The notes beneath the pieces are model-generated. The model was not told the origin of the DNA, ran no database searches, and was given only the letters and a program-made list of their open reading frames with translations. A program made the position numbers and the translations under genes. Shown here in pieces: positions 2 to 52,114 of a stretch of DNA of 64,000 nt (position 1 is its first letter; every line of letters starts with the position of its first letter). Origin of the DNA: an uncultured Candidatus Saccharibacteria bacterium (GTDB lineage: Bacteria > Patescibacteriota > Doudnabacteria > UBA920); NCBI GenBank assembly GCA_964631145.1, contig CAZVXT010000003.1, positions 2,750-66,749 on the forward strand. The letters are read 5' to 3'.

Positions 2-931
2 AGTAAAGGTGGAACTGCTGGATATGTCTGGCAAGACAATGCTGGCAACCTTCGCATTAACACTGCGGCGCCAAGTAACGCCAACGATACTGCCGGAACT
101 GTGGTCGGTACACAAACTTCTACTCGCGACACTAAGCAAGACATAACTGACTACACCGATTACACCGCTGCTTTGTTGATGGTAACCAATGCACCATTGC
201 ATACTTTTCGCTATATTAAAGATGTCCAAGGTTACGGTGACAATAGTGCGCTTGCAAAACAAAGAATTGGATTCATTGCCGATGAAGTGGCATCTGATTT
301 CATGTGGGGCAATGCTATCGATCAAGTATCAATCAATGGTATATTAATGGCTAGCGTAAAGGCTTTAGATCAGAAAATTTCAGACTTGCAAACTCAAGTA
401 GCAAACATTCAGGGGCAGCAACCTGGCGGACAACCTACTCTTTCTTCTAACACACCGTTAGTATTACATAACCACTTATACTTATCAGAAGATTCAGTCG
501 GTGAAGCCAAGATTTTGTCTGGCAGTACTAGTGTAAGAATTACTTTCTCTAAGCCTTATGAATATCAACCGATTGTTACCATTACTCCTGGTGGCAGAGT
601 GGGTTCTGAATATTGGGTAGCAGATAAGGATAATACTGGATTTACTATTTATATTGCAAACGGTATACAGACAGATGTTATGTTTGACTGGCATGCGTTT
701 GCTGGACCTCAGGCTAAATTAACAATTTCTGATGGTTCGACTACACCGATTACATTGGTAGTAGCAAATAATAATAATTCGGGGCAAGTGTTAGGAGATT
801 CAACTCCGTCTGCAACTGACAATACTGTTACGACTGATTCAACTTCAAATCCAAGTGCTCCATCTGTAGATCCAGCACCAGATAGTACACAATCTAATAC
901 TGCAGATCAAACATCACCACAAAACCCTTAA
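2..931 (+). CDS. Tail-fibre-like protein carrying an intramolecular chaperone (Peptidase_S74-like) domain; 5' partial, the frame is open back to the window start.
   Basis: Translation contains S-T-R-D-T-K ... RIGFIADEV ... VSINGIL ... VKALDQKISDLQ, matching the S74 chaperone pattern (SDxRxK, GxIAQEV, coiled coil). No stop occurs in frame from nt 2. Confidence 0.5.
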   Translation, partial: SKGGTAGYVWQDNAGNLRINTAAPSNANDTAGTVVGTQTSTRDTKQDITDYTDYTAALLMVTNAPLHTFRYIKDVQGYGDNSALAKQRIGFIADEVASDFMWGNAIDQVSINGILMASVKALDQKISDLQTQVANIQGQQPGGQPTLSSNTPLVLHNHLYLSEDSVGEAKILSGSTSVRITFSKPYEYQPIVTITPGGRVGSEYWVADKDNTGFTIYIANGIQTDVMFDWHAFAGPQAKLTISDGSTTPITLVVANNNNSGQVLGDSTPSATDNTVTTDSTSNPSAPSVDPAPDSTQSNTADQTSPQNP

Positions 932-956
932 AGGTTTGTGGTGATTTGATTTCAAA

Positions 957-982
957 AAACTCTCGCAATCGAGAGTTTTTAT
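957..982. terminator. Bidirectional rho-independent terminator between convergent genes.
   Basis: Hairpin actctcg-caat-cgagagt flanked by an A-run and a T-run. Confidence 0.5.
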
Positions 983-986
983 TATT

Positions 987-1589
987 CTAGCTTTGTTGAA
1001 ATTTATCCATTCCTACTTTGTTAGCTAAGTCTTCTACAGATTGCCAGTTTAGATTTTCAAAAAATGCATTAATGTAATCGGCTCTAGCCACTCCATAATC
1101 CATCATGTATGCATGCTCGTAAACGTCTAATGCAACCAGTGGAGTAGCATGCCAAATTGGAAAGCCATCATGCTGATCACCTAAATAATTAAAAAGCTTT
1201 CCTGTTTGCCAATCCCAGGCTAGCCAAACCCAGCCACGTGCTGCCAGACCTGTTGCCTTCATATCTTGTTGCCAAGATTCAAACCCTCCAAATTGTTTAT
1301 CTATTTCAGCGCCTATCCATCCTTGGGGTTTGCCACCTTGTCCAGATAAGTTTTCAAAATAAAGTTCGTGGCTTTTGATTGCGTCTAATGCAAAGCTGTA
1401 ACCAAGTTTTAGAGCTCTTAAATCACTATAAGTGGCATTTGCAGAAGTATAGTCAACTGTTTTTAATTTCTCTAAAATTTCATTTGCTTTTTTGACATAA
1501 CCTTCATAAAGTTTGTAATGCTCGGTCATTAGTTTTTCGGATAGTCCTTTGACTCCACTAATGCTGGCAAATTGTTTTGCTTGATACAT
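987..1589 (-). CDS. sodA: Fe/Mn superoxide dismutase.
   Basis: Motifs HYKLYEGYV and DVYEHAYMMDYG. Start is trimmed to MYQAKQF; the upstream ORF extension is basic junk. Confidence 0.85.
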   Translation of the reverse strand: MYQAKQFASISGVKGLSEKLMTEHYKLYEGYVKKANEILEKLKTVDYTSANATYSDLRALKLGYSFALDAIKSHELYFENLSGQGGKPQGWIGAEIDKQFGGFESWQQDMKATGLAARGWVWLAWDWQTGKLFNYLGDQHDGFPIWHATPLVALDVYEHAYMMDYGVARADYINAFFENLNWQSVEDLANKVGMDKFQQS

Positions 1590-1625
1590 AAAAGTAAGAT
1601 TTAATGGTAATTTAAAAGTAACAAA

Positions 1626-1660
1626 AAAGATACCGTATCGCAAACGGTATCTTTTTAATT
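1626..1660. terminator. Rho-independent terminator, readable on both strands.
   Basis: agataccgt-atcgcaa-acggtatct with T/A runs on either side. Confidence 0.55.
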
Positions 1661-1669
1661 TTTGATTTT

Positions 1670-2236
1670 TTATGCTTTTCCTAAAGTGTCTTTGCCGTGT
1701 TCCCAGTTTGCAGGGCATCTCTCGCCAGTTTGTAATGCTTCTACTACTCTAAGCATTTCGGTGATATTTCTTCCTACAGAATCTGCAGAAACAAGCATAA
1801 AACGAAGCTTTCCTTCTGGATCGATTACAAAAGTTCCTCGTTGAGCGCTTCCGTCATCGTCTAGAACATCATAAATATCTGCTAGTTCTTGGGTTGTATC
1901 TGCAATAATTGGATAGCTAACCTCTTTTAATCGTGCATCAGTTTCAAACCATGCTTTGTGTGCATACTCACTGTCTGTGCTTGCACCTAAAACTTCACAA
2001 TTTAGTTTTTGGAATTCTGGATATAGCTTTCCAAATTCTGCAATCTCAGTAGGGCAGATAAAGGTAAAATCTCTTGGATAAAAGAATAGCACTAACCATT
2101 TTCCTGAGTAGTCGCTAAGAGAGACCTTATGAAATTCTCCTTTATGATAACTTTGCATGTCTTTAAATATTGGAGCTGCTTGTCCAACTTTTGGTGCAAA
2201 ATCAAAGTCATTAAATTCTTCTATATTGTTTTCCAT
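1670..2236 (-). CDS. 2-Cys peroxiredoxin (AhpC/TSA family).
   Basis: FTFICPTEI active-site motif; 188 aa. Confidence 0.85.
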   Translation of the reverse strand: MENNIEEFNDFDFAPKVGQAAPIFKDMQSYHKGEFHKVSLSDYSGKWLVLFFYPRDFTFICPTEIAEFGKLYPEFQKLNCEVLGASTDSEYAHKAWFETDARLKEVSYPIIADTTQELADIYDVLDDDGSAQRGTFVIDPEGKLRFMLVSADSVGRNITEMLRVVEALQTGERCPANWEHGKDTLGKA

Positions 2237-2699
2237 AAAATATTATTAATTACATGTTTATAATAACTTGTTTTTCAAATATTTTGAAGTAACTAAGAAA
2301 TGAATTAACTACAGGTTTATATAACTTTTGAGTGAATTCCGCAGCCCTATATTATAAGTTAATTTTTAGAGCGAGGACTAGTGAAATAGTTATATAAACC
2401 TCGTTGTATATTCTTTAAAGATTATAAAATTCTTTTATAAGATAGATTTGACCAAAGTGGGGTAGAAGTGGTATATTGATGTTGTTAATTTAATTTTAAA
2501 ATTTTGTTGTTTGCCGTAATTCTTACTTTGGAAGAAGCGCAGAATGATTTTAAACTATGAACAAATTTTCCACTCTTTCTTTAAGAGAATCTAGTAAAAA
2601 TTTTATATTTAGACCAATGTCAGCACAACTGGCTGGTCTTTAATTTTTGCTAAAATTTGATGTTTAAAATACTGCAAGCAGCAAGTTTGTAAGGATTTT

Positions 2700-4244
2700 A
2701 TGTTATTAATTTATATTGCTATTGGATTAGCGGTTGGCGCTCTAATTGGATATTTTGGTCGCCAAACATTGATTTCCAAAAAAGTAGCTGGTGCAGAAAG
2801 AAATGCAGAGCGAATTTTGGAAGATGCAAAAAATAAAGAGAAAGAAGTTTTAATCGAAGCTAAAGCTAGAGCTTTAGAAATAACCGAATCTGCTAAAAAA
2901 GCAGAAGCGGATTTCCGGGCGCAAATTGTACGCTTTGAAGAGCGTATTGATCGCCGTGAAAAAGATTTGGACGTAAAAACTTCTCAGTTAGAGAAGCGAA
3001 ATAGTGAAGTCGAGCAAGAAAAGAAGGATTTACAAATTGCTCGAGACGAAGTTAAAGAGCTTAGAGCTAAGCAATTAGAAAACTTGCAAAAAATTGCTGC
3101 TATGACAAAGGAAGAAGCGGCAAAAGTTTTGTTAGATAATACAGAAAAGCAAATTAAAGAAGAAATGCTTGGATTGCACCGTAAGTTAATTGCGGAGGCT
3201 CATGAGACAGCAGACAAAGAAGCTCGCAAAATAGTTGCTCAAGCCATCGAACGCGTGGCAACTGAAGTTACTGCAGAAAGCACAACAACTACTGTTGATA
3301 TTCCTAACGAAGAAATGAAGGGTCGTATTATCGGAAAAGAAGGGCGTAATATTAGAACCTTTGAGCAGTTAATGGGTGTTGAAATTTTAATTGATGATAG
3401 TCCAGACTCTGTAGTTGTTTCTGGGTTTAATTCTATAAGACGTTACATTGCAAAGTTAACATTAGAAAAACTTTTACAAGATGGACGTATTCATCCTGCT
3501 CGCATTGAAGAAGGGTATGAAAAAAGCAAAGCTGAAGTTAACGAGCAAATTAAACGCGCTGGTGAAGATGCAGTTTACGAACTTGGTATTACATCATTTC
3601 CTCCAAAGCTTGTGCATCTGGTTGGGCGTTTAAAGTTTAGAACTTCATATGGACAAAACATTTTGCTTCACTCTGTAGAAATGGCAAAGATTGCATCTTT
3701 AATTGCAGAACAGCTTGGCGCTGATCAGCAGATAGTTAAGCAAGGTGCGCTTCTTCACGATATTGGTAAAGCGCTTGATCAAGATATGGAAGGAACTCAT
3801 GTGGAAATTGGTCGTCGTATTGCCGAGAAGTTTGGATTAGATGAAAAAGTTATTGAAGCTATCGAATCTCATCACCACGACACTGATGTGGCTGAGCATT
3901 CTACTCATCGTCAGCCATTATCTGTAGAGGCTATGATTGTAGATGCTGCGGATGGTATTTCTGGTTCTCGTCCTGGAGCTCGTAAAGACAGCTTTGAAAA
4001 TTATGTAAAGCGCTTAACAGATCTCGAAACTATTGCCAATTCCTTTGAAGGCGTAGAAAAGACTTATGCAATTCAGGGTGGTAGAGAACTTCGAGTTTTC
4101 GTAACTCCAACTGTGCTTGATGATTATGCTTGTCAAAAACTTGCTCGTAGTATTGCTAATCGTTTGCAGAATGAGCTTAAATTTCCTGGTGAAATTAGAG
4201 TTCAGGTAATTCGCGACTTTAGAGTAATCGAGTACGCAAGATAA
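2700..4244 (+). CDS. rny: Ribonuclease Y.
   Basis: N-terminal TM helix, coiled coil, KH domain (GRIIGKEGRNIR) and HD domain (LLHDIGK); 514 aa. Confidence 0.9.
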   Translation: MLLIYIAIGLAVGALIGYFGRQTLISKKVAGAERNAERILEDAKNKEKEVLIEAKARALEITESAKKAEADFRAQIVRFEERIDRREKDLDVKTSQLEKRNSEVEQEKKDLQIARDEVKELRAKQLENLQKIAAMTKEEAAKVLLDNTEKQIKEEMLGLHRKLIAEAHETADKEARKIVAQAIERVATEVTAESTTTTVDIPNEEMKGRIIGKEGRNIRTFEQLMGVEILIDDSPDSVVVSGFNSIRRYIAKLTLEKLLQDGRIHPARIEEGYEKSKAEVNEQIKRAGEDAVYELGITSFPPKLVHLVGRLKFRTSYGQNILLHSVEMAKIASLIAEQLGADQQIVKQGALLHDIGKALDQDMEGTHVEIGRRIAEKFGLDEKVIEAIESHHHDTDVAEHSTHRQPLSVEAMIVDAADGISGSRPGARKDSFENYVKRLTDLETIANSFEGVEKTYAIQGGRELRVFVTPTVLDDYACQKLARSIANRLQNELKFPGEIRVQVIRDFRVIEYAR

Positions 4245-4319: not shown

Positions 4320-5104
4320 ATGGCAAGACGAAAAAGCATCATTGTTGTTCTAGTATCACAGAGCAAGATTATTATGATCAAGCTCAAAAGCAATTATTAA
4401 AACATCACCCATTTTCTGACAAGGTTGTCAGTGCAATTATTAGCACATTAGAGCTTGGAGATTTTTGTGGTTGTAAACTGCTAGCAATTGGACAAGTAGT
4501 TGATTCTAAGTTTTTTTGGCAATATGTTTTGAACACTGGAAAGTTGTCCATCGATCAAGTTAGAGAAATAGCAGAAAGGCATTATTTAAGTTGGAAGTGT
4601 TTGTTAAGAATGACGGCAAAGGCAAAAGAAAAAAATCCTAAAGCCAATGGTATTTTTAAGATGCCATATAAAAAAGAAGACTTTGAACTAGTGTTAGCTA
4701 GGGGTGGTGACGAAGAAGTTTTGGCTTTAGGTATTCAATCCGGGTTGTATAAGCAGGAAGATATTATTAGTTTATTACAAGAAAATAACTATGGATTGGG
4801 TTGCGACTGTGTGCAAATCGCCATTATTGAAAGTAAGATAATGCCTTTGGTTGGCATATGGTTGCTTGATCGATATTCGGGTGATTATGCTTTGGGGGTG
4901 ATAAATCTGTATTTAGATATAGATCGTCCTAAAGGTGAGGATTTGGAAGATTATTTAGAATCTGCGGTAGAATTATTTCCTCATTATTCAGCAGCGATTT
5001 ATACTAAAGCTTTGCAAATCCCAAATAATCAATTATCAGATAGTTTTCTTGCTCAGTTGGTTAGAAATGGTGCACTCAATGTATCTGTTCCAGCAAGTGC
5101 TTAG
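4320..5104 (+). CDS. Hypothetical protein with an apparent frameshift near its start.
   Basis: A strong AAGGAGG ribosome-binding site sits 7 nt before ATG 4320, but that frame stops after 27 codons. The long ORF continues in the -1 frame from about 4331 across the run gAAAAAg. The ORF-track TTG start at 4268 lies inside the rny terminator hairpin. Confidence 0.4.
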
Positions 5105-5140: not shown

Positions 5141-5540
5141 TTGTGTAATTGTTATAATTGGTATTAGCAAGAAGTGCTTTTTAGTTTTAAAATTTATTTA
5201 TTGTAGAGCAACATAGTAAAGTTCATAAACCATCAGTTGTTGATTACTATTAATTATATTTATAGTTTTTGCTAGTTGGATAGGATTATTTTTTCTTCCT
5301 TTAGAAAACTGGCAATACGATGGTGTGATATTATACGCTGTTCCTTTATTTTGAGGCTTGGTATTTTATTTATTTGGAAGATATAAAGGGTGGGATAAGC
5401 CTTTGCATTCTTTATTGAAATATTTTTTGATATTGTTTATGTTAGCAGTCTCAATATGTATTATGCTTATTATATTTACTATTTTCTTTGCTATTTTGGG
5501 ATTATTTCACACTTCTTCTTACGGAGGTTTTATATAAAAT

Positions 5541-6369: not shown

Positions 6370-6894
6370 ATGCAATTTATTAAACCAGATCAAATAGTAT
6401 CACAAATTGGCTTAAGATCTACTAATGTGGTGGCAGACTTTGGTTGCGGAGCTGGGTATTTTAGCTTAGCGGCTGCAAAAATTGTGGGAGCAAGTGGCAA
6501 GGTTTATTCGATAGATATCCAAGATGCAAAATTAGCTGCAACGGCTTCTGCTGCATCGGGACATAATTTGCGCAATATACAGACACTACACGCTGATCTA
6601 GAAAAGACCTTAAACTTGGATGCTGGAACTTTTGATGCTGTAATGCTTGCTAGTATACTTCACGAAGCTAAAGATTTAGATACAGTAATTGCCAATGCAT
6701 ATCGATTATTAAAAACTGCAGGGTTGCTGCTTATTGTAGAATGGAAGACTCAATCTACTCCGTTTGGTCCAAGCTTGGAACGCAGAATTTCGGAGCCAGA
6801 TTTGCTGAGCAAATTAGAAAAAGCCGGATTTGGTATGCTTAAGCAGTTAAAAGCAGACTCTTATCATTATGCGGCTGTTTTAAAGAAGCATTAA
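6370..6894 (+). CDS. Class I SAM-dependent methyltransferase.
   Basis: VADFGCGAGYFS motif I; 174 aa. Confidence 0.7.
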   Translation: MQFIKPDQIVSQIGLRSTNVVADFGCGAGYFSLAAAKIVGASGKVYSIDIQDAKLAATASAASGHNLRNIQTLHADLEKTLNLDAGTFDAVMLASILHEAKDLDTVIANAYRLLKTAGLLLIVEWKTQSTPFGPSLERRISEPDLLSKLEKAGFGMLKQLKADSYHYAAVLKKH

Positions 6895-17175: not shown

Positions 17176-17695
17176 TAAGGATTTAATTATCCACAAATTA
17201 AGGAGACTTTAAAAGACATACACCTCAATTTCAGCTAGATGTATCCAGAATTTTTTTGGAGATTATCTAGGTTCAAATTTATAGATATTTTATAGATTTG
17301 AGAAATGAGCACTACAAAGGCTACTTTGGGTGTTTTTTATTCTCCCAATTGTACTTTGACAACTTCATAGTGATTGAAATGTGTACGAAATTGTAGAACA
17401 GAAATTCTCTTGTAGAATTTCTCACAATATTAGTCGCCCATTATAAACAAGAGATCTATTGGATTTAGAGTTTGTATGGGAAATTGATTACGTCAAGTTT
17501 TTTGAGATAAATACTTCAAGCTTTGATAGTTAGCTTTAAATAAACTATCGCCAGTTCTCATGAGCACTATTCGCACGGTAGCAAATAGTGTGAGGACAAA
17601 CTCAGAACACATAGTTAAATTGTGTTAGCATAACCGAAACAAATCTGGCTTTGCCAGTTTGTTGAGGGGGGGCTGTCGCGAATAATTTCGCGACC

Positions 17696-19156
<1,461 letters not shown>

Positions 19157-19167
<11 letters not shown>

Positions 19168-19343
19168 TAAGGAATATTTCGCTTCTTGTTCGTTTTTCGA
19201 AACAGCAAGTGCGACAATAAAGCTAGTTTGTTTTAAACAAACAGCTCCGTTGGTCGTCGTTAATTTTTCCGAAAATTAGCGCATCTTTCAAAAGACTTGT
19301 AGTCGGTTCATTTCAGTCACTATGTAGTTGTGAAAAAATAAAA
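19157..19343 (+). repeat. Direct repeat copy 1 (attL-like); includes the last 12 nt of 16S plus 175 nt of trailer.
   Basis: Appears identical by hand alignment to 24074..24260. Confidence 0.8.
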
Positions 19344-19377
19344 GAACCTTTTTTCTAAAGCTAGAAGAAAGGTTTTT

Positions 19378-20343
19378 ATGTTTTTGGAAAATACCATAGA
19401 AACAAATACCAATGACGGAATTAAGCTTAACTCTGCTGGTGTCAAGTTAAGTGAATTACTTTCAGAGTTTCTGCAATATGCTCAGTACGAACTAATTTTT
19501 TCTACTCAAACACTTGCTAAATACAAGGAGTCGTTAGAATGGGTAATTCGGGACATTGGTGATATTGCCATAAATGAGTTAGATAGCAGTCATATTATAT
19601 TATTGAAGCAGAAAATTATGAACCGCGGTGCAGGAGAGTCTCGCGTTGCCTCAGTAGTTTTTGCTTTAAAAAGTTATTTAAAATTTATCAAAGAGTTTAA
19701 GCATTTAAAGGTTATGGACTATAAGAATATAAAGTCACCTAAGCGTAGTAGACGAGAGGTTATATTTTTAACTAATGAAGAAGTTCAGCAATTTATAGAT
19801 GCAATTAAAATTGACAACAAGTGTCGTAGAGGAAATAATAAGCAGCTTATAAATATGGATGGGTTAAGGTTTAGGGTCTTAGTCGAAGTTTTGCTAGGGA
19901 CAGGCATGCGCATCTCTGAAGCATTGAGTTTAAATGTTAGTAGTATAAACTTTGAAACATCTGAAGCGAAAATTATTGGTAAAGGTAATAAAGAGAGGGC
20001 TGTGTTTTTTAGCACCCGATGCTTAAAGTGGGTTAATTATTATTTAGAACAACGCTCGGATAATGAAGAGGCTTTATTTGTCACTAACCGTGGCACTCGT
20101 TTAAAGCGCGCAGATGTTAGTGGTTTCTTCCAGCGATATTCTAAGAAGGTTAACCTGTTAAAGAGAGTTACACCTCATATTTTACGTCACACCACTGCAA
20201 CCAACCTTTTGTTTAATGGTTGCCCTATTGTACATGTAAAAGAAATATTAGGTCATAATAGGCTAGAAACCACTTGTCGTTATTACTTAGGTGTAGATAA
20301 AAGAAGGGCAAAAGAAGCTCATGAGGCTTATTTAAGGTACTAA
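19378..20343 (+). CDS. Tyrosine recombinase / phage-type integrase.
   Basis: Box I TGMRISEAL; box II HILRHTTAT; catalytic LGHNRLETTCRYY tyrosine. Confidence 0.85.
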   Translation: MFLENTIETNTNDGIKLNSAGVKLSELLSEFLQYAQYELIFSTQTLAKYKESLEWVIRDIGDIAINELDSSHIILLKQKIMNRGAGESRVASVVFALKSYLKFIKEFKHLKVMDYKNIKSPKRSRREVIFLTNEEVQQFIDAIKIDNKCRRGNNKQLINMDGLRFRVLVEVLLGTGMRISEALSLNVSSINFETSEAKIIGKGNKERAVFFSTRCLKWVNYYLEQRSDNEEALFVTNRGTRLKRADVSGFFQRYSKKVNLLKRVTPHILRHTTATNLLFNGCPIVHVKEILGHNRLETTCRYYLGVDKRRAKEAHEAYLRY

Positions 20344-20533
20344 TAGTAATTTATTTAGCTTGAAATTGAATTTATTTGTACTATTTCACGACGTTTTTGC
20401 AATAAAAATAATATTATTTTGAAATAAATATCAGCGCGGGGGGGTAGGACGCGGGGTTTGGTCATTATTCTTCTTAAACATACTTTTAGTGCGCTAAGTT
20501 TTATTATTCAGAGCTGTATTGACAGGTGTACGT

Positions 20534-20562
20534 TTGACCAACCAAAATAATTTTGCTATAAT
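20534..20562 (+). promoter_or_regulatory. Sigma70-like promoter for the cargo genes.
   Basis: TTGACC, 17-nt spacer, TATAAT. Confidence 0.5.
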
Positions 20563-20612
20563 ACCTTCAAAGATACTTTCCGAAATTCATTGGAGTGAAA
20601 TTCATAAAATAA

Positions 20613-21224
20613 ATGACCATACAAACCAAAAAAATTAACACAAAATTAGTAAGAAATAATATCGACACACCTTTAGAAGTTTCTAGAAGTCTTTTTACTA
20701 CTGCGTTAGAAGAAAAATTATCAACTAGTTTTGGTTTGGCTAATTCAGATACCGTTGGTTTACCTCTGGGGAAGCATTTAATAACAGGTAGTACTTCCAT
20801 AGCGAGTTTAAACTCTAATTTAACTGGAGCTGTTGCTTTTCCAATTGATAGAGCGCCAGTATTATTTCCAGAAAGTATTGTAACTGAGTCTATTGTCACT
20901 GCTCCTGCATATTCATTTACTGATGATATGTTAGTAGTTATGTATGAGTCAATTGTTTCTCAGCAGTCTAATATTCTTTCTGGTACTTTGTGGGATGCAG
21001 AGGCTTTAAGCACAACTAAGCTTAAACTTGTAGAAGACGTTAACCTTTACTATAGTTTTAATTATGAAGGCTTAACATGGAAAGACTTCTTACCTCGCAT
21101 CACCCGGTTTGTAAAAGATGTCGTTAGAAATTTTAAAAAATTATTTGAGGTTGCAGTTTATTGGTTAAGCCATTTAGCAAAAATTTTCTTTGTTCAAAGC
21201 AAACCCACTGTATTATTGGCTTGA
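20613..21224 (+). CDS. Hypothetical protein (island cargo).
   Basis: 203-aa ORF downstream of a consensus promoter; no motif. Confidence 0.45.
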   Translation: MTIQTKKINTKLVRNNIDTPLEVSRSLFTTALEEKLSTSFGLANSDTVGLPLGKHLITGSTSIASLNSNLTGAVAFPIDRAPVLFPESIVTESIVTAPAYSFTDDMLVVMYESIVSQQSNILSGTLWDAEALSTTKLKLVEDVNLYYSFNYEGLTWKDFLPRITRFVKDVVRNFKKLFEVAVYWLSHLAKIFFVQSKPTVLLA

Positions 21225-21302
21225 TACGGAAATAAACACACCAATTAGTTGTATTTTTATGGTGTGTTTTTGTTTTGTATTAAATTATTAAATTTTAAAC
21301 CA

Positions 21303-21581
21303 ATGTCATTACATGTTACTTGTGTTAATAAACCAGACCGTTATAGTGAGCATGAACATATAACCCATATAGGTGGTTCTGGATGGCGAAAAACTCGAGA
21401 AGCTGTTGTCTATGAGATAAACAATAATATAAATTCTTATTACACTAAAGACCCATATACTGGACAAGTCGCTTGGGTTGGTGTAGTTAACCCCTCATAT
21501 GGAGACCCATATCTTCGAACTTATGCTGATGGAGACTGGAACGATAACTTGCTATCTCTTAATGAGTGTACCCTGTATTAA
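21303..21581 (+). CDS. Small conserved-looking protein, possibly DUF3892-like (recalled from memory, unverified).
   Basis: HEHITHIGGSGW ... REAVVYEI ... YLRTYADG ... DNLLSL pattern. Start trimmed to MSLHV. Confidence 0.4.
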   Translation: MSLHVTCVNKPDRYSEHEHITHIGGSGWRKTREAVVYEINNNINSYYTKDPYTGQVAWVGVVNPSYGDPYLRTYADGDWNDNLLSLNECTLY

Positions 21582-21644
21582 GGGTTTTATGGAATTGGCG
21601 CCCTATGTTTAAATGGGGCGCCTTCCCTATTAATTCAAACACTA

Positions 21645-22844
21645 ATGACTGATGTAAAAATTAACCCAAATACTCTTTGCGTTTGTGGTAGTGAAAAAAA
21701 ATTTAAGTATTGTTGTAGATATAAATATGCTGCAACTAATTTTCGAGTTCCCCAAGTACCAGTAGAAGTAGTGCAGTATTTTGCCAAAAAGAACCAAGAG
21801 CTCGAAACAATGAAAGCAATGGGAATACATATAAACTATGTTCGCCCTATTGTGCATCAAGGTGGAAAAATGTGGGTATTGGGTGACTGTGTATACAAGG
21901 GTCAGATAGGTGAGACCTTCCATGAATTTATCATTGGTGTTTTAGGTAGTACTTTGGGTAATGAATGGCTGCAGGCTCAGTTTGCTTTGCCAGAAAGCGA
22001 AAGACATTATATTGCTACTAGCTTTATAAAGTTTGAAGAGTGGAAGGCGAAAAATATATCAGTAACAGAAATAGTTATTAATGGACGAGCACATGCTACA
22101 TCTGATGGATGGACTAAAACTTTACTTGCTTTAGCTTTTGATATTGCTAGCTTGCAGCATACATTGCAATTGCCCAATAGTTTATTAGAGCGCCTTAAAG
22201 GCAAAGACTCTTACCAGGGGGCTCGTTATGAAATTGCAATTGCTGCAATTTTTGCAAGACTGGGTTGTAAAATTGAGTTCTTGGATGATGCTTTTCCTGC
22301 TCATTTAAAACACTGTGAATTTATTGCTACTCACAATGAAACTGGGGTTAAGGTTGCTGTGGAAGCGAAAAGTCGCCATAGGGAAGGCGTGCTGAATACA
22401 GCTGGAGAACAAGACGCAGAAAAAATTGTTAAGGGGGATGTTCGCAAGCTTGTAAAAAATGCTATGAAGCAAAACCCGAATGATGTACCGTTCATGGTTT
22501 TTGTGGATGTAAATGTTCCCATAGATGGTGCAGAGACATCCTTTGACAAAAAGTGGGTGCAAGACGTAATGAGTTTTATGACTAAACAAATTTGTTCACA
22601 AGAAGACCCGTCACCACATAATGGAGTCTTCTTCACTAACTATTCATTTCATTACCAAAATGAAGATGATGCAGTGAATGGTGAGAATTTAAGTGTAGTC
22701 CCTCAATTCTCAAGGTTTCCGTTACCTAACCCCGAGTTTTCTAGTATGCTATCGGCTGCACTTAGATATTATGGTAACATTCCGAATTTAGATGTCGATG
22801 ACGACTTAGATGAGAATGGTCGCTTGCGAAGTAGTCCTAACTAG
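21645..22844 (+). CDS. SEC-C-motif protein with a putative PD-(D/E)xK nuclease-like core.
   Basis: N-terminal CVCGSEKKFKYCC (SEC-C zinc motif). Central FLDD ... VAVEAKSRH resembles a D ... ExK signature. Confidence 0.45.
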   Translation: MTDVKINPNTLCVCGSEKKFKYCCRYKYAATNFRVPQVPVEVVQYFAKKNQELETMKAMGIHINYVRPIVHQGGKMWVLGDCVYKGQIGETFHEFIIGVLGSTLGNEWLQAQFALPESERHYIATSFIKFEEWKAKNISVTEIVINGRAHATSDGWTKTLLALAFDIASLQHTLQLPNSLLERLKGKDSYQGARYEIAIAAIFARLGCKIEFLDDAFPAHLKHCEFIATHNETGVKVAVEAKSRHREGVLNTAGEQDAEKIVKGDVRKLVKNAMKQNPNDVPFMVFVDVNVPIDGAETSFDKKWVQDVMSFMTKQICSQEDPSPHNGVFFTNYSFHYQNEDDAVNGENLSVVPQFSRFPLPNPEFSSMLSAALRYYGNIPNLDVDDDLDENGRLRSSPN

Positions 22845-23030
22845 ATGCTATAATATTATTACAATTTAATTGCCTAAACCCACTGTGCAAGCATGGGCAT
22901 GGCAGTAAAACCTAAAGTATATAGAACCCTCGTCCAAGGGCTTACTTTAGGTAATACAGGGAAACTTGTATTGGTGTCGTAAGACATCTCTTGGCGGGGG
23001 CTTTGTGTTTTCCGTCAAAGAAAGGAAAAA

Positions 23031-23261
23031 ATGTTTAATAAAATAACTATGTCCTTAATAGCTGTCTCAGCCTTACTCTTTAGCATTAGCTATGCTTTTG
23101 GACAGTATGTGGAAGCCAAAGACCATAACTTAGCTGTATTAAAGCCGTTATTGGACTTATGTTTCAGTGCTGAAGGCTTGACTACTGAAACTGTTCAGCA
23201 GTGTACAGAATTAAATAAAAAACAATTTATTTTTAAGTACCCTGTTTTACCTCATAAATAA
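23031..23261 (+). CDS. Small secreted protein.
   Basis: Signal-peptide-like N-terminus; 76 aa. Confidence 0.35.
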   Translation: MFNKITMSLIAVSALLFSISYAFGQYVEAKDHNLAVLKPLLDLCFSAEGLTTETVQQCTELNKKQFIFKYPVLPHK

Positions 23262-23339
23262 GCTACTTATTTTACCTAAAATTGTAAATATAAAGTGAGT
23301 AGTTTTTAAATTAACTGATATAATATAGATAACTGAATA

Positions 23340-23380
23340 ACCGACATACACCCCACTTTGGGGGTATTGTCGGTTTTTTA
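23340..23380 (+). terminator. Rho-independent terminator.
   Basis: ccgaca ... ccccactttggggg ... tgtcgg followed by T6. Confidence 0.55.
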
Positions 23381-23397
23381 ATTAAATAGGCTAGTAT

Positions 23398-23480
23398 TTG
23401 CAAGAAGAGTTCACTGATAACTGGATAGAGCCATAAGCTTGCAAAACTATCCAGCTATCAGTGAATTTTTATTTGTTTTG
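23398..23480 (+). other. Nested inverted repeats (19-bp arms) forming a large hairpin followed by a T-run.
   Basis: ttcactgataactggatag pairs with ctatccagctatcagtgaa; ttgcaag pairs with cttgcaa. Confidence 0.5.
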
Positions 23481-23822
23481 CTTTGCCCTATTAGTTTATC
23501 CGTAGCTAACAGGGCAGGGGTAAAGTAAGTAATACTTCGTCTCCCTCCAGTCTCTACAAGACAGCTTACGGACGTAAAAAGAGTAAGTGGCACGTGTGCC
23601 AGATAACGAAAACCTCATAATTGGCAAATTTTACGTATAAACATTGTATTTAGTGATAACTTCCAGCTGGGAGTGTGGCAGAGAAAGGCTGTAATTCCTT
23701 TCCCACCTATAGTAAGTAGTATAAATAATGAATAATGTATTGGTGTATATGTCTATTAGGAAGTGGCTTGTGGGTGGTGGGGGTTATGTATACTTATATA
23801 CTTATTATTAATATGTAGAAAA

Positions 23823-23990
23823 ATGAAAAACAAAAACTACAAGAAAACCCGGTTTAAGAAACTTATCCGTATTGCTCCAAAACAGTTAGAGTATGTGCGT
23901 GATATTAGAGCAGGTTATACATTAGCTGGTAGGCTAGATGAAATAATAAACTTTTACCGCAAGTATAAGAAAAATTCTCCTACTTCTTGA
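23823..23990 (+). CDS. Small basic protein, possibly a ribbon-helix-helix DNA-binding protein.
   Basis: KKTRFKKLIRIAPKQLEYVRDIRAGYTLAGRLDEII fits a beta-strand, helix, helix pattern. Internal start chosen. Confidence 0.3.
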   Translation: MKNKNYKKTRFKKLIRIAPKQLEYVRDIRAGYTLAGRLDEIINFYRKYKKNSPTS

Positions 23991-24073
23991 GAAAAACAGC
24001 ATTTTTGATATAATAAAGGAAATTAATGCTAGCATAAGAAACTAGCTTTTATTTCTTTCAACAAATAGTGAAC

Positions 24074-24260
24074 ACCTCCTTTCTAAGGAATATTTCGCTT
24101 CTTGTTCGTTTTTCGAAACAGCAAGTGCGACAATAAAGCTAGTTTGTTTTAAACAAACAGCTCCGTTGGTCGTCGTTAATTTTTCCGAAAATTAGCGCAT
24201 CTTTCAAAAGACTTGTAGTCGGTTCATTTCAGTCACTATGTAGTTGTGAAAAAATAAAAT
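24074..24260 (+). repeat. Direct repeat copy 2 (attR-like).
   Basis: Appears identical to 19157..19343. Confidence 0.8.
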
Positions 24261-24261
24261 T

Positions 24262-24286
24262 CACCCATTAGGGTGTTTTTTTGTTG
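24262..24286 (+). terminator. Rho-independent terminator.
   Basis: cacccattagggtg followed by T7. Confidence 0.6.
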
Positions 24287-24363
24287 CCTAATTTATCTGG
24301 ATATTATTTAAATTTAAAACAGATTTTATCTAATAGGTTGTATTCTTAAAATATAAAATATCA

Positions 24364-25479
24364 ATGGAGGATTTTATGAAGATAATGTTTGCTTGCTTAT
24401 TGAGTTATGTATTTGTTTTAAATATATTTGCACAAGCAGTAGGTGTAATGCCTTTAGTAGGTGTTAAGCAATATAATGGAACTTATGCAGGGAGTTTTGG
24501 CACAGGTATTTTTGGTTATAGCACTTTATACCGTGATAATCAGGATAATGGTTTAACAAGTGGATGTAGGGGTGATGGTTGTGGTCGTCACCCAGGAGTA
24601 GATATTCCTGTATCGTCAGGAACATCAGTTTATTCTGCTTTAAATGGACAGGTTGTTATTTCTCGCTGCGATCCCACATGGGGAGGTTTAATTGTCATCA
24701 AAGCCCGTAATCCATACACTTTAGATGAGCCTATAAATATAATTTATGGGCACCTTTCTAATAGAGTGACGCAAAATGGTAGTAGTATTGTTGCAGGGAT
24801 GTATGTAAACGCTGGCGATAAAATTGGTAATAGTGGCGGCAGGTCAGGCATCGATCCATGCAGTGGCAGATCTACTGGGGCTCATTTACATTTTCAAATT
24901 GATAAAAACATCGGAAGTTATGAACCATACTTTCCAAATTTAAACAGTTTAAATTACTCTGATCAAAACTATGAAGTTTCTAGTCGCACGTATAATCCAA
25001 TCGTCTTTTTACAAGGTGGTTATAAGTGGAGCTTCGGAGAAATTAATAACCGTGAGTTGTGGGACATTTTTAATTTTCAAAGCTTTGGTGTTTCTGGCGA
25101 TGCTTTGTGGTTAGACGGATCGCAGGATCCATACATACAACATGGAGGTTTTACTAACTGCGGGTTAAGTGTGAAATGTAGTAGCGGTTTAAGCATAGAA
25201 GCTTCGCAGGCAAAATACCTAACAATGGATATGTATAATCGATGTGTGAGTGGTTTGGGTAAAATTTATTTTACCACTAATCAAGAACCATTTTTTGATG
25301 AAATCAAAACTTTATCATATATAGTTGTTTCTACAGGAGCATTGCAGCCAAAAATTTATACACTCAACCATTATAAATGGCGTGGGTTAATTACTGGGTT
25401 GCGAATAGACCCTGCAGAAAATTGTTCTCCTGCTTTTGACCCTAATTATTTTGGCGAAATAAAACTATCGTGGCAGTAA
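24364..25479 (+). CDS. M23-family metallopeptidase (LytM-like) with a C-terminal extension.
   Basis: HPGVDI ... and ... GAHLHFQI zinc-ligand motifs; signal peptide. Confidence 0.75.
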   Translation: MEDFMKIMFACLLSYVFVLNIFAQAVGVMPLVGVKQYNGTYAGSFGTGIFGYSTLYRDNQDNGLTSGCRGDGCGRHPGVDIPVSSGTSVYSALNGQVVISRCDPTWGGLIVIKARNPYTLDEPINIIYGHLSNRVTQNGSSIVAGMYVNAGDKIGNSGGRSGIDPCSGRSTGAHLHFQIDKNIGSYEPYFPNLNSLNYSDQNYEVSSRTYNPIVFLQGGYKWSFGEINNRELWDIFNFQSFGVSGDALWLDGSQDPYIQHGGFTNCGLSVKCSSGLSIEASQAKYLTMDMYNRCVSGLGKIYFTTNQEPFFDEIKTLSYIVVSTGALQPKIYTLNHYKWRGLITGLRIDPAENCSPAFDPNYFGEIKLSWQ

Positions 25480-25579
25480 ATTATTATCAAGTATTTTTAA
25501 AGCCGGGATTTATCCTTGGCTTTTTATTTTTAGAATAATTTATATTTAAAATTTTCAGATTTACTCGATAAGTAATTTA

Positions 25580-26338
25580 TTGTATAATATGTTTATGATA
25601 TATACTTATTTATACACGTTTTTAAGTGTTGCGGTGGTCAGTGTTGTTTCTTTAATAGGTATTTTTACGATCGGTATAAATGAATCTTTCTTGCGTAAAG
25701 TTTTGCAGTATGTAATTAGTTTTTCTGCTGGAGCTTTGCTGGGAGATGTGTTCTTACATGTTTTGCCAGAGATGGGTCAAGATGGGTTTGCTATTAAATC
25801 CGGATTGTATTTATTATTAGGCATAGTAATATTTTTCTTATTAGAAAAATATATTTTATGGCACCATGATCATGGTGAGCATGAAGAGTCTGTACATTCT
25901 ACAACTTACTTAACTATATTCGGGGATGCTTTGCATAACTTTATTGATGGACTTATAATTGCTGCAAGTTTTTTGGTAAGTATACCACTTGGGATTACAA
26001 CTACTATTGCAGTTGTGTTCCACGAAATACCTCAAGAAATTGGACAGTTTGCAATTTTAATCCATGGTGGTTGGAGTAAAGCAAAAGCTCTTTGGTATAA
26101 TTTTGTTTCTGCGGTTACATCAGTGCTTGGAGCTGCGGTAGTGTTATTTTTAGCTCCACAGTTAAAAGATGCGCCTATGGCATTGTTGTCATTCGCAGCC
26201 GCTAGTTTTATTTATATAGCTATGTCAGATATTATCCCAGAATTACATAAAGAAAAAAATATAAAAAAATCTTTATGGCAAGTTTTTTCTTTTGTGATAG
26301 GGGTTATGGTTATGCTTTTATTAATTTATTTAGAATAA
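25580..26338 (+). CDS. ZIP-family metal transporter.
   Basis: His-rich loop HHDHGEHEE and HEIPQEIGQFAIL; several TM helices. Confidence 0.8.
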   Translation: MYNMFMIYTYLYTFLSVAVVSVVSLIGIFTIGINESFLRKVLQYVISFSAGALLGDVFLHVLPEMGQDGFAIKSGLYLLLGIVIFFLLEKYILWHHDHGEHEESVHSTTYLTIFGDALHNFIDGLIIAASFLVSIPLGITTTIAVVFHEIPQEIGQFAILIHGGWSKAKALWYNFVSAVTSVLGAAVVLFLAPQLKDAPMALLSFAAASFIYIAMSDIIPELHKEKNIKKSLWQVFSFVIGVMVMLLLIYLE

Positions 26339-26497
26339 ATGCTAAATACTAAAATAGAACCTAAAGGTGAACGTTGGTTTATTTGGACAATGGTATTTCT
26401 ATTGGTTTCTGGGGTGTCGTTGGTTAGTTATATTATGATTACAGATATCGGTAATACTCAAGTAACAGATATAACGGCTAGTTTTATTAAAGTAAGA
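26339..26497 (+). CDS. Possible 52-aa small membrane protein; below the ORF-track length cut-off.
   Basis: ATG immediately follows the ZIP stop codon; one TM helix; followed by a terminator. Confidence 0.25.
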
Positions 26498-26502
26498 CAC
26501 CG

Positions 26503-26538
26503 TTAATAAAAATCAGCCTCTAAGAGGTTGATTTTTTT
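26503..26538 (+). terminator. Rho-independent terminator.
   Basis: cagcctct-aa-gaggttg followed by T8. Confidence 0.55.
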
Positions 26539-26570
26539 TGTTAACTATGATATAATAACTATATAGTTAA

Positions 26571-27896
26571 GTGATTAGCAAAGCTAATAACGAAACAAAA
26601 ACAAAAATACAAATGAATAATCTTTACTCAGCTGTTGAATGGCAAAGTTTTTTTGACTTTTCTATTCCAACTTTTGCTAAATGGGGGAGAGGCGTTAGAA
26701 ATCATATAATCCCTCATGAGCAAAACAATTATCATCCTCACATATTAAGCCATCGTTTGTTGGCTTTGTTTTCGGTACTAGCAGTAACAATTAAAATTGC
26801 CAGTATTTCTTTTGTTGCTCTTGGTCCTGTAACAACAGCAGAGGCTTCTGTTATTTCTTCTGAAACTGTATTAAGCTTAACTAACTCTGCTCGTACTGAA
26901 AATTCTTTATCAGAATTAAAGATGAGTGGATTGCTTTCTAAGGCAGCGCAGAATAAAGCTGATGACATGTTGGCTAAACAATATTTTTCTCACAACACTC
27001 CTGAGGGAAATACACCTTGGACTTTTATCAAGACAGTTGGCTATAGCTATACTACAGCAGGAGAAAATTTGGCTATAGATTTTTCTGATGCTGAAAGTGT
27101 TCAAACAGCTTGGATGAATAGTCCAGGACATCGAGCAAATATTTTAAACAAAAACTTTAAAGAAATAGGAATAGGTATTGCTAAAGGAATGTTTGACAAT
27201 CATCAAACCACAATTGTTGTTCAGATGTTTGGAACTCCAATCGCACAGCAGTTAGATTTGAAGTCAGAGGTAACTCATGTTGAAGAAGCAAAGCCTGTAC
27301 AAAATGTAGAGGCTGATCAGCCTTCTGCTGTTGCAGTAAGCGAGAAGTCAAAAACAGTTTACACCGCTCCTCTTGTACCAAATACTGTTTCTCAACCAGT
27401 TGCTGATCGATCTCAAGATTTAAAAATAGTTGAAACAAAAACTTCTTTGCAAGGTGACAATTTTAATATAGAAGTTGACACTTTGGGCAACATTGCAAAG
27501 CTGATGGTCTTTTATGGAAACAAGTCAGTTATACTTCAACCTATTAGTAATAATTTATGGCAGGGTCAAATCAAGATGGCTAACATAGGACCATTTGATA
27601 ACATGTATGTTCAGGCTTCTGATATTAATGGTAATATGCACCAAGAACCAATAGCTCAATTTTCTTCTCATCTTACAGGTGTAAAACCTGGAGAAGTAGA
27701 GGGTGCAACAGTTACGGTTTTGGGTAATCATATTAATGTAGGATTTTTGGAAGAACGTGCATTTATGATTATGCTCGCTGGTTTATTGGTAGCACTGATT
27801 TTGGCTATCGCTATTAAGAGGCACATTCAACATTTAAGCTTGATAGCCAATACTTCTTTTGTGGCTATCCTTATAGCAATGCTAATGATGGTTTAA
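26571..27896 (+). CDS. CAP/SCP/PR1-domain protein, membrane-anchored.
   Basis: YFSHNTPEG ... GENLA ... SPGHRANIL (CAP motifs); N- and C-terminal TM helices. Confidence 0.7.
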   Translation: MISKANNETKTKIQMNNLYSAVEWQSFFDFSIPTFAKWGRGVRNHIIPHEQNNYHPHILSHRLLALFSVLAVTIKIASISFVALGPVTTAEASVISSETVLSLTNSARTENSLSELKMSGLLSKAAQNKADDMLAKQYFSHNTPEGNTPWTFIKTVGYSYTTAGENLAIDFSDAESVQTAWMNSPGHRANILNKNFKEIGIGIAKGMFDNHQTTIVVQMFGTPIAQQLDLKSEVTHVEEAKPVQNVEADQPSAVAVSEKSKTVYTAPLVPNTVSQPVADRSQDLKIVETKTSLQGDNFNIEVDTLGNIAKLMVFYGNKSVILQPISNNLWQGQIKMANIGPFDNMYVQASDINGNMHQEPIAQFSSHLTGVKPGEVEGATVTVLGNHINVGFLEERAFMIMLAGLLVALILAIAIKRHIQHLSLIANTSFVAILIAMLMMV

Positions 27897-27920
27897 ATTA
27901 TAAAATATAATTTTATTGAT

Positions 27921-27945
27921 AATATAAAAAAACTCCATTTGGAGT
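27921..27945. terminator. Terminator.
   Basis: aactcca-ttt-ggagtt followed by T7. Confidence 0.6.
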
Positions 27946-28022
27946 TTTTTTATTCTGGTGGGCGTGCCAGGAATTGAACCTGGGACCTCGTCATTATCAG
28001 TGACGCGCTCTAACCAACTGAG
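27946..28022 (-). tRNA. tRNA-Ile(GAT) with encoded CCA.
   Basis: Minus-strand cloverleaf with anticodon loop CTGATAA and T-arm GGTTCAATTCC. Confidence 0.85.
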
Positions 28023-28081
28023 CTACACGCCCAAATTAGATACTTGGGTATTTTAGCAATAATATCAAAAAAAATCAACGG

Positions 28082-28405
28082 CTAATTTTGTGGCATTGCT
28101 ATACTGGCAGTTCCAAAATCAAGCACTCCTCCCATCCATAAAACTGCTAAAATCATAAAAGCCAATCCCAATAGCTTGTAAAAAGTATAAGTACCTCCAA
28201 AGGTAGGGGTTATATACTGTTCAGCAAAATCTAATTTACCACTTTGGTATGTTATCCATACTGAGTATTTCATCAATAAAAAGCCAATAACAATTAGAAT
28301 AGGTCCTAATATAAATCTCATACTATATATTATATCATTTGATTTTAAAATATTTTTGATTTTGAAACAGTTTACTAGCATTTTCGATATACATAGTATA
28401 AGCAT
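28082..28405 (-). CDS. Small membrane protein.
   Basis: Three hydrophobic helices. Confidence 0.4.
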   Translation of the reverse strand: MLILCISKMLVNCFKIKNILKSNDIIYSMRFILGPILIVIGFLLMKYSVWITYQSGKLDFAEQYITPTFGGTYTFYKLLGLAFMILAVLWMGGVLDFGTASIAMPQN

Positions 28406-28428
28406 TAATATAATAAGGAGCTAAAATT

Positions 28429-28611
28429 ATGGCAAAATATGGAAAAGCTGCTCAAAATAAAATTGAAAAAGTAATGCATGAATTTAAGAAAGGTGATTTA
28501 AAAAGTGGTCGTAGTGGTAAGACGGTAAAAAATCCTAAGCAGGCAGTGGCTATTGGTATTTCTGAAGCTAAAGAAATGGGTGCTAAAGTACCAAAGAAGA
28601 AAAAACAATAA
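28429..28611 (+). CDS. Small lysine-rich conserved protein.
   Basis: 60 aa; KQAVAIGISEAKEMG motif; Shine-Dalgarno AAGGAG upstream. Confidence 0.5.
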   Translation: MAKYGKAAQNKIEKVMHEFKKGDLKSGRSGKTVKNPKQAVAIGISEAKEMGAKVPKKKKQ

Positions 28612-28627
28612 ATACAATTTATAATAA

Positions 28628-28655
28628 AAAACCCGCCTAATGGCGGGTTTTTTTA
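28628..28655. terminator. Terminator.
   Basis: aacccgcc-taat-ggcgggtt followed by T7. Confidence 0.7.
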
Positions 28656-28731
28656 TGGTGGACCCCAGCGGACTCGAACCGCTCACCTCCTCGGTGCAAA
28701 CGAGGCGCTCTACCAGATGAGCTAGGGGCCC
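28656..28731 (-). tRNA. tRNA-Ala(TGC) with G3:U70 and encoded CCA.
   Basis: Minus-strand cloverleaf with anticodon loop TTTGCAC and G3:U70 in the acceptor stem. Confidence 0.85.
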
Positions 28732-50242: not shown

Positions 50243-50283
<41 letters not shown>

Positions 50284-50915
50284 CACCCCGGAAGGGGAAT
50301 GAAATAGTCTCTGAAACCATATACTTACAAGGAGTGGAAGACCTAGGGCTCGCAAGAGATTCCAGGTTAACCGCGTGCCTATTGAAGAATGATCCAACGA
50401 GTTAGTTATATGCGGCTTAACTAAGTGTTATCAAACACGAAGTTGTAGTGAAAGCGAGGATTAATAGTCCGTATTAAGTTATATTCAGTTTTCGGCTTTT
50501 GCTGGATACTGAATATAATCTTAAATGTCGCATGTGCTAGACCCGAAACCCGAGTGAGCTACCCATGGCCAGGATGAACGTTGTGTAAAAGCAACGGGAG
50601 GTCCGAACCCACTAATGTTGCAAAATTAGGGGATGAGCTGTGGGTCGAAGAGAAATTCTAATCGAACCGGGTGATAGCTGGTTCTCCTCGAAATAACTTT
50701 AGGGTTAGCGTCACATGTTCTCTCCAGAGGTAGAGCACTGAATCGATCTCCGGTGCGCAAGCGTCGGATTCGAACCAAACTCCGAATTCTGAGAGATAAA
50801 TAGTGTGGCAGTTAGTCTATCGGCTCTAAGGTCGATCAGACGAATGGAGAAGAATCCACACCGCCGTTTAAGGTCCCCAAATCCTAGCTATAGTGCAAAG
50901 GATGTGGGATTGCTC

Positions 50916-50952
<37 letters not shown>

Positions 50953-52110: not shown

Positions 52111-52114
52111 TTTT

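Follow-up and report, generated by a model that had tools for sequence, protein, structure and literature searches.

A probable integrative mobile element with an Xer-like recombinase directed at the 3' tail of the 16S rRNA gene

We analysed a 64-kb stretch of DNA, hereafter the window, from an uncultured bacterium of the Doudnabacteria (assembly GCA_964631145.1, contig CAZVXT010000003.1, positions 2,750 to 66,749 of the forward strand). Downstream of its 16S rRNA gene, window positions 19344-24072 together with one copy of a direct repeat very probably constitute a small integrative mobile element that encodes its own Xer-like recombinase and targets the 3' tail of the 16S rRNA gene. The element belongs to a large and apparently undescribed family that shares this target and is abundant in candidate-phyla (Patescibacteria) genomes with a stand-alone 16S gene. 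A preliminary description of the region, made from the sequence alone, had proposed a site-specific island that restores the 3' end of a stable RNA gene, and the flanking repeats, an empty site and the 16S-adjacent relatives all support that proposal. We refer to the direct repeat as R, to its core as O, to the 16S trailer module as M, to the integrase gene as int, and to the DNA at the right end of the element that precedes O as the P arm; numbers beginning with L denote contigs fetched for comparison. The loci compared came from one-genome-per-species contigs (78) and from Joint Genome Institute (JGI) metagenomes (80; 158 in all). Genes for 16S and 23S rRNA and for LOOT RNA were located with Rfam, tRNA and tmRNA genes with ARAGORN, and proteins were searched against Pfam, PHROGs, NCBIfam and PADLOC.

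The two copies of R, at 19157-19343 and 24073-24259, are identical at 187 of 187 positions, and an exact repeat of this length in 64 kb is not attributable to chance. Identical flanking repeats had been reported in the preliminary description, which placed the first copy correctly and the second one base too far to the right (24074-24260). The left border of R is CACC, preceded by GGAT in the first copy, where GGAT is part of 16S, and by GTGAA in the second; further to the left the sequences are unrelated. On the right side, identity ends after AAAATAAAA. The 16S rRNA gene has a full-length match to its Rfam model at 17699-19166 (RF00177, 1405.6 bits) and its tail reaches 19168, such that R opens with the final 10-12 nt of the gene, CACCTCCTTTCT, in agreement with the earlier statement that the first copy starts with the terminal 12 nt of 16S. 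We rejected a tRNA or tmRNA gene as the true target, since ARAGORN found neither at either junction, and only three unrelated tRNAs in 50 related loci.

The 16S gene is not linked to the 23S and 5S genes in the window; they lie 30 kb apart, on the + strand (17699-19168 and 49590-53751). Likewise, no 23S gene was found within 7-10 kb in any of the 158 related loci. These are stand-alone 16S genes, and the lack of linkage probably makes the insertion site tolerable.

It had been remarked that 187 bp is long for an attachment core. The length holds, but R is not a core throughout: it consists of a short core, CACCTCCTTTCTAAGGA, and a remaining 170 nt that are the whole 3' trailer of 16S. The last block of M is complementary to a segment of the host leader that lies 110-350 nt ahead of 16S, and the two form helices of 20-30 bp that are clear in most of 16 loci; some of the differences between loci are compensatory (for example, AGUGA/UCACU versus AGCGG/CCGCU). 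In the window, the duplex between 17354-17381 and 19309-19336 has an energy of -36.0 kcal/mol, as compared with -24.4 +/- 2.0 kcal/mol for shuffled leaders; duplex energies for the whole length of leader and trailer were not discriminating, whereas the windowed comparison was. We identify this helix as the long-range processing stem of the pre-16S rRNA. R stops just past it, and thus combines a short crossover core with all that a stand-alone 16S transcription unit requires for its completion. Because the element carries a complete trailer, the pre-16S unit is rebuilt on integration.

The module between O and int is conserved and structured across the family, with a hairpin that has a TTTTCGAAG loop, then GGTCG and a second hairpin, and the blocks GACGTAAACGGTTTTGTA and TCACTATTTAGC(C/T)GTTAAAG. 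After the invariant GGTCG the hairpin stems vary freely, with pairing kept in most of 88 distinct sequences when these are folded separately; RNAalifold applied to a 22-sequence MAFFT alignment of O-M returned almost no structure, with the hairpins misaligned. In relatives, the hairpin equivalent to the one that abuts the int start codon in the window holds GAGG, which could act as a ribosome-binding site.

An empty site, for which the preliminary description had suggested a search, exists in the same strain background. L003, a Logan contig from a sister sample (run SRR12712865) found via an exact look-up of the downstream M23 peptidase, reads from the 16S 3' end through a single R and the native terminator into genes for the M23 peptidase, ZIP and CAP. 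Positions 4-320 of L003 correspond to window 19027-19343, and positions 134-4071 to window 24073-28010, both at 100% identity with zero mismatches; relative to the window, L003 has precisely lost one R and the 4729-bp interior. A contig of the unitig type runs unbroken across 16S, R and the downstream genes only if k-mers of the element junctions are absent from the run, and we therefore regard the empty site as real. Since the empty-site strain has no integrase gene, the gene is dispensable. A second Logan contig, L001 (4946 nt, run SRR12712864), is the single one on record with the integrase of the window. It corresponds to window 19314-24259 and begins and ends with the same 30 nt, a terminal repeat found in no other locus among 171; the overlap fits a cycle of 4916 nt at k = 31. 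We take it as slight evidence for a circular or tandem form. The search for circular junctions proposed in the preliminary description gave this overlap, for which a circle, a tandem copy and a graph branch would each account.

At E<=1e-20 the integrase has 1947 relatives; identity to it is 52-65% among the best 120, and the few of these 120 that have a name given by the source are Patescibacteria assemblies. We counted linkage to 16S ends in 139 integrase copies, 95 of which are at least 46% identical and have at least 420 nt of upstream sequence. In 76 of these 95, CCTCCTTTC is found on the same strand no more than 450 nt upstream, and in 32 of the 76 copies it is a genuine 16S gene end; the preliminary description had asked whether relatives of the integrase use rRNA 3' ends, and the outcome favours this. 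The 10-mer ACCTCCTTTC is otherwise almost missing from 1.02 Mb of loci, and the motif lies 138-294 nt from the int start codon in 43 of the 44 copies with an intact reading frame. A further 44 of the 139 copies (31%) are less than 420 nt from the start of their contig, as would be expected if assemblies break in 16S. The 32 occupied 16S loci come from two independent collections, and include contigs of several hundred kb with tandem arrays and pairs of attL and attR. More generally, homologues of the O-M module precede family integrases, with integrase and O-M linked in 80% of members. IMG/VR contains hardly any members of the family, with only one relative above 40% identity. The smallest element, in L169 (82-1921), has 1839 bp between two core copies and contains a trailer and an integrase gene only.

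Pairs of attL and attR in six loci (L019, L104, L110, L120, L152 and L169) bear on the position of strand exchange. In all six, the similarity between the two ends begins exactly at (AT)CACCTCC, with unrelated left flanks (16S versus element DNA), and continues rightward as identity over 18 to ~113 nt before giving way to diverged homologous sequence. In three O copies (L036:558, L170:16319 and L005:5287), unrelated sequence follows directly past CACCTCCTTTC. Together, the six pairs and the three O copies confine the exchange to ~11 nt of the 16S tail. We infer that strands are exchanged within the anti-Shine-Dalgarno tail, inside CACCTCCTTTC, most likely around the heptamer CACCTCC. In contexts other than 16S, the triplet before CACC is usually AAA or GAA, and P arms contain an imperfect inverted repeat, ..GAAA/CACCTCC/TTTC.., that would be organised like a simple core of the Xer or Cre type, with a spacer of 7 bp. 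L005 also has a second CACCTCCTTTCTAC motif, at 5287-5320, accompanied by a complementary hairpin; it precedes the 5' end of 16S by 36 nt, and tail-like motifs are therefore found on both sides of that gene.

Tandem arrays occur on five contigs, in each of which a single 16S gene is followed by two or three integrases at intervals of 13-22 kb. Every integrase in these arrays is preceded by a core, and mostly also by its own copy of the trailer, the copies being 73-79% identical. Two Doudnabacteria genomes, with 16S genes 81-90% identical, have the same two element types in swapped rank: L007, the first after 16S, and L006, the third in the other genome, share 96.6% identity in the integrase and 94.6% in O-M, while L009 (first) and L064 (second, with a decayed integrase) share 88.8% in O-M. 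As the element types changed rank together with their trailers, the trailer belongs to the integrase-proximal end, and insertion takes place upstream of it, at O. We therefore rejected a crossover at the 3' end of the trailer, by which the trailer next to 16S would always be that of the host: the trailer travels with the integrase across ranks, and CACCTCC is in every case the point at which attL and attR become similar. At greater distances, trailers within a host clade resemble one another more closely than their integrases do, which suggests adaptation or gene conversion towards the host.

We propose that the Xer-like recombinase would recombine the site on the element (P arm, O and M), presumably in a circular intermediate, with the 3' tail of the host 16S gene, where its target would be CACCTCCTTTCTAAGG. 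The trailer copy between O and int would bring in the leader-pairing strand and the element's own terminator-like hairpin, such that integration would leave the 16S gene and its processing stem intact and the transcript terminated. The remnant of the host's original tail, with its trailer and terminator, would be displaced to the far end of the element, as attR; by this model the first copy of R is the one that came with the element.

Some observations weigh against an integrative element aimed at the 16S tail. For 44 members of the family, most of them outside the candidate phyla, the sequence just ahead of O-M-int is a P arm and not 16S; these are mostly Acidobacteria and Deltaproteobacteria, together with one Arenicellales chromosome, and no rRNA or tRNA gene lies within 7 kb of them in the loci checked. 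Nor were rRNA or other RNA genes found near members outside the candidate phyla in 149 kb searched. The two R copies in the window are identical, which makes the crossover unmappable in this element, and its position rests on relatives. The terminal overlap of L001 is also expected from a graph branch, with the cut falling exactly at the end of R. Lastly, the basis of the analysis is assembled contigs, and the integrated layout of the window could be the path of an assembler through the 187-bp repeat. By this account, the element would exist only as a free circle carrying R, the chromosome would always be empty, and the circle would have been threaded in through the shared repeat. Indeed, the de Bruijn graph of an empty chromosome and a circle that share R cannot be told from that of the integrated form, the 30-nt (k-1) overlap of L001 amounts to one 4916-nt cycle, and an empty site exists. 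On the other hand, relatives drawn from two independent collections are integrated beside full 16S genes at 32 loci, and the position of the break in L001, precisely where R ends, favours a graph branch over an isolated cycle. We consider an artefact of this kind unlikely and, even if it were true for this sample, the nature of the element would be unchanged.

Less probable again is that RecA-dependent homologous recombination across the 187 bp accounts for the insertion, the integrase having no site-specific role at the 16S tail. Perfect identity over 187 bp would suffice for recombination of the Campbell type, and the crossover is unmappable in this element. Relatives, however, share only 18-31 nt of identity at O and have trailers that have diverged with indels, and yet they are inserted at the same point. 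In addition, the left border of similarity is always CACCTCC, the linkage of integrase and O-M is family-wide, and arrays with trailers 73-79% identical remain stable. We can dismiss as very improbable the idea that a Xer-type recombinase and its neighbours are a fixed host locus downstream of 16S, with the empty site a rare deletion between duplicated trailers: although integrase relatives adjoin 16S in many candidate-phyla genomes and the GC content of the element equals that of the host, cargo is wholly different between relatives, element lengths run from 1.8 kb (L169) to ~17 kb, the order of elements is swapped in two genomes, some integrase copies are pseudogenes (L059 and L064), and unit boundaries are repeatedly marked by P arms, promoters and O.

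The P arm of the window ends in a promoter-like site that faces outwards and a segment that resembles the 16S leader (Table 1). Promoter-like sites with at least 10 of 12 matches, located 58-107 nt before O, are present in 27% of 60 P arms, as compared with 2.3% of random windows, and may direct transcription across O. Complementarity between P arm and trailer beats all shuffles in 28 of 54 units family-wide; in the window itself, the duplex of P arm and R (-15.6 kcal/mol) fails to beat shuffled arms (mean -19.1 kcal/mol). The joined P-O-M sequence suggests a miniature pre-16S transcript that would drive int only in a circular or tandem form, and we offer this as a lead.

Additional tyrosine recombinase genes flank O-M-int in loci outside the candidate phyla (L018, L026, L036, L037-L049, L070, L077 and others): one lies upstream on the same strand and ends 100-200 nt before O, and often one lies downstream on the opposite strand. 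In L036, the Arenicellales chromosome (OZ242007.1), a P arm of ~150 nt occurs three times, at 420-566, 4083-4229 and 6604-6751, each copy ending in CACCTCCTT. The first two copies are followed by small related open reading frames (ORFs) and not by a trailer and an integrase gene, and these integrase-less units upstream of O-M-int resemble an integron cassette array. The arrays outside the candidate phyla may be anchored on a 16S gene further away, or may take the O beside the integrase as an acceptor site of their own. A broader proposal, which we put forward tentatively as a possibility, is that the 16S tail anchors an integron-like accretion platform for a very large recombinase family in several phyla. 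Units with and without an integrase would stack at CACCTCC, attP, with its promoter, leader-like strand, 16S tail and trailer, would be a miniature pre-16S RNA that places int under the control of rRNA processing, and the elements would exploit stand-alone 16S genes and help to keep 16S and 23S apart in bacteria of the candidate phyla.

Table 1. Features of the element and its surroundings (window coordinates)
Feature	Position	Strand	Basis or remark
Host 16S leader segment, 5' strand of the processing stem	17354..17381	+	Pairs with 19309-19336
16S rRNA gene, integration target	17699..19168	+	Rfam RF00177
R copy 1 (attL), 16S tail and full 3' trailer, probably element-borne	19157..19343	+	Exact repeat; fold z = -5.55
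Core O (CACCTCCTTTCTAAGGA), putative strand-exchange site	19157..19173	+	Invariant in 22/22 aligned family members
Trailer segment, 3' strand of the processing stem (block CACTATNTAG...)	19302..19336	+	Leader-trailer duplexes
Element hairpin and T-run abutting the int ATG	19342..19377	+	Terminator-like, 16 pairs; takes the place of the native terminator
Xer-like tyrosine recombinase (integrase), 321 aa	19378..20343	+	PF00589, 1.5e-38; phrog_1 integrase, 2e-43
Sigma-70-like promoter for the cargo ORFs	20534..20562	+	TTGACC-17-TATAAT with TG, 11/12 matches
Cargo ORF, 203 aa	20613..21224	+	No match in Pfam, PHROGs, NCBIfam or PADLOC; gene call in L001
Cargo ORF, DUF3892, 92 aa	21303..21581	+	PF13031, 9.4e-18; phrog_8224, 8.3e-18
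Cargo ORF, 399 aa, N-terminal SEC-C/SWIM-type zinc motif	21645..22844	+	PF02810, 5.5e-5, residues 9-24
LOOT RNA (RF03000)	22871..22988	+	80.2 bits versus gathering 46.4; model positions 1-121, full length
Small ORF, 76 aa, hydrophobic N-terminus	23031..23261	+	ORF list; no family match (Pfam)
Structured non-coding stretch	23262..23762	+	Minimum free energy -141.3 kcal/mol, z = -4.95 versus shuffles; no Rfam match
Small basic ORF at the right end, 55 aa	23823..23990	+	Gene call in L001 at 4510-4677
Outward promoter-like site reading across O and the trailer	23987..24014	+	TTGAGA-16-TATAAT with TG, 11/12 matches
Last 27 nt of the P arm, resembling the 16S leader strand; can pair with the end of R	24046..24072	+	Moderate support
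R copy 2 (attR), probably the original host tail remnant and native trailer	24073..24259	+	Exact repeat; joined to the downstream genes in L003
Native intrinsic terminator of the stand-alone 16S unit	24262..24275	+	CACCCATTAGGGTG then T7; directly after R in the empty site

The element unit measures 4916 bp, that is, the interior of 4729 bp at 19344-24072 and one R, and its GC content is 35.3%, with 34.9% for the window. The tyrosine recombinase gene, the cargo module with its own promoter and the structured non-coding DNA that had been noticed between the repeats are all borne out (Table 1). int starts 35 nt past the first copy of R, such that the recombinase gene occupies the target-proximal end of the element. 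Catalytic residues are kept across an alignment of 33 sequences, with R178, K202/K205, R270, H293 and Y303 invariant and H267 nearly so. Solved structures closest to the integrase are XerA, an XerC-like protein and XerD. Its scores fall below the NCBIfam equivalog cut-offs for Xer proteins (XerA, 185 versus 220 bits; XerC, 181 versus 335; XerD, 168 versus 330) and below those for integron integrases (TIGR02249, 85 versus 265 bits; NF011946, 58 versus 435), and no separate arm-binding domain was matched in Pfam or NCBIfam. The 64-kb window contains only one recombinase of this family and no trio of adjacent recombinases of the recombinase-in-trio (RIT) type; some relatives have two or three recombinases, in orientations unlike RIT. 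Chain 14 of PDB entry 9i5v, a Porphyromonas gingivalis ribosome, is a 401-aa protein deposited as RaiA whose residues 7-280 align with the integrase (E = 1.8e-23). The protein resembles a fusion of a recombinase-like domain with a ribosome hibernation factor, and we treat it as a curiosity; the accompanying paper models 34 residues of the RaiA chain and leaves the recombinase domain unmentioned (PMC12123416).

The cargo consists of four or five ORFs without assigned function, and LOOT RNA, which rides directly after the 399-aa ORF with the SEC-C motif. For that ORF no solved relative was found. The non-coding stretch after the 76-aa ORF holds a 27-nt inverted repeat (23402-23473) and a terminator-like hairpin near 23340-23380. 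At the right end, the longer frame that includes the 55-aa ORF (23763-23990) has no family match in Pfam; by its position, the basic 55-aa ORF is a candidate directionality factor. We found no phage structural, packaging or replication genes, the PHROGs matches being limited to the integrase, the DUF3892 ORF (a family of unknown function) and a weak match to the SEC-C motif. Accordingly, a phage origin was rejected, as neither PHROGs nor IMG/VR supports it, and so was a defence system as cargo, for which PADLOC returned only weak matches to the SEC-C motif.

Elsewhere in the window, genes for tRNA-Ile and tRNA-Ala lie on the - strand at 27956-28731, between 16S and 23S/5S. The 23S match, at 49590-53524, spans 3935 nt against a model of 2925 positions, and three or four tRNA-like genes on the same strand (matches at 51674-52189; Glu, Pro and two with odd anticodon loops) are apparently inside the 23S gene.

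To our knowledge, the stable-RNA genes that integrative elements are known to target encode tRNA and tmRNA. Islands and prophages at the 3' ends of these genes have their integrase gene beside the target-proximal attachment site and repeats that include the 3' end of the gene, which is thereby restored; this scheme was reportedly laid out by Williams in 2002. The element described here is like them in its replacement gene end, flanking repeats, tandem accretion at one site and precise empty site. It differs in that the target is 16S rRNA, the restored part is a whole 3' trailer with one strand of a processing stem and a terminator, and the integrase is short and Xer-like. R1 and R2 retrotransposons of eukaryotic rDNA insert inside 28S by target-primed reverse transcription and inactivate the copy that they enter. 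The parallel with them is one of analogy only, in that the extremely conserved sequence of an rRNA gene offers a safe and universal target; the mechanism is unrelated, and here the gene is rebuilt. As in integrons, a recombinase gene lies beside a primary site and units stack in one orientation, with the integrase-less units of L036 bounded by P arm and O; unlike in integrons, most stacked units carry their own integrase, and the site mimics the 16S tail and is not a pair of attI and attC. Similarity to Xer/dif and to integrative mobile elements exploiting Xer (IMEX) lies in sequences closest to XerA, XerC and XerD and in the short spacer between imperfect inverted repeats of the candidate core, but the element encodes its own recombinase, targets the 16S tail and not dif, and its recombinase gene is dispensable. 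Tycheposons of marine bacteria have tRNA-gene borders and lengths of 4-200 kb (PMC10872708). Cargo, an XerD-like tyrosine recombinase beside a stable-RNA gene and the variability of the islands are shared with them, whereas the elements described here are anchored at the 16S tail and measure 1.8 to ~17 kb.

A 16S 3' end had been called unusual as an attachment site in the preliminary description, and our search of the full-text literature agrees: it found no natural integrase aimed at the 16S rRNA 3' end, although most subscription journals lie outside its coverage and priority is not proven. What appears to be new is the class of target and the large integrase family, and the requirement to rebuild an RNA processing stem is unusual; the logic of stable-RNA-gene targeting was already known.

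The target includes the anti-Shine-Dalgarno sequence, which is among the most conserved in bacteria, and the family could therefore have a wide host range. The integrase could serve as a landing-pad recombinase and, if the integron-like interpretation is true, as a natural enzyme with a broad host range. Since each element is linked on the same DNA to the standard phylogenetic marker, its host can be read directly, and the elements explain some of the contig breaks and odd 16S neighbours in candidate-phyla assemblies. The absence of 23S genes near the 158 loci raises a possible link between the elements and unlinked rRNA genes. Lastly, the family reveals a constraint on mobile DNA: an element at this site must rebuild an RNA processing stem whose other strand belongs to the host.

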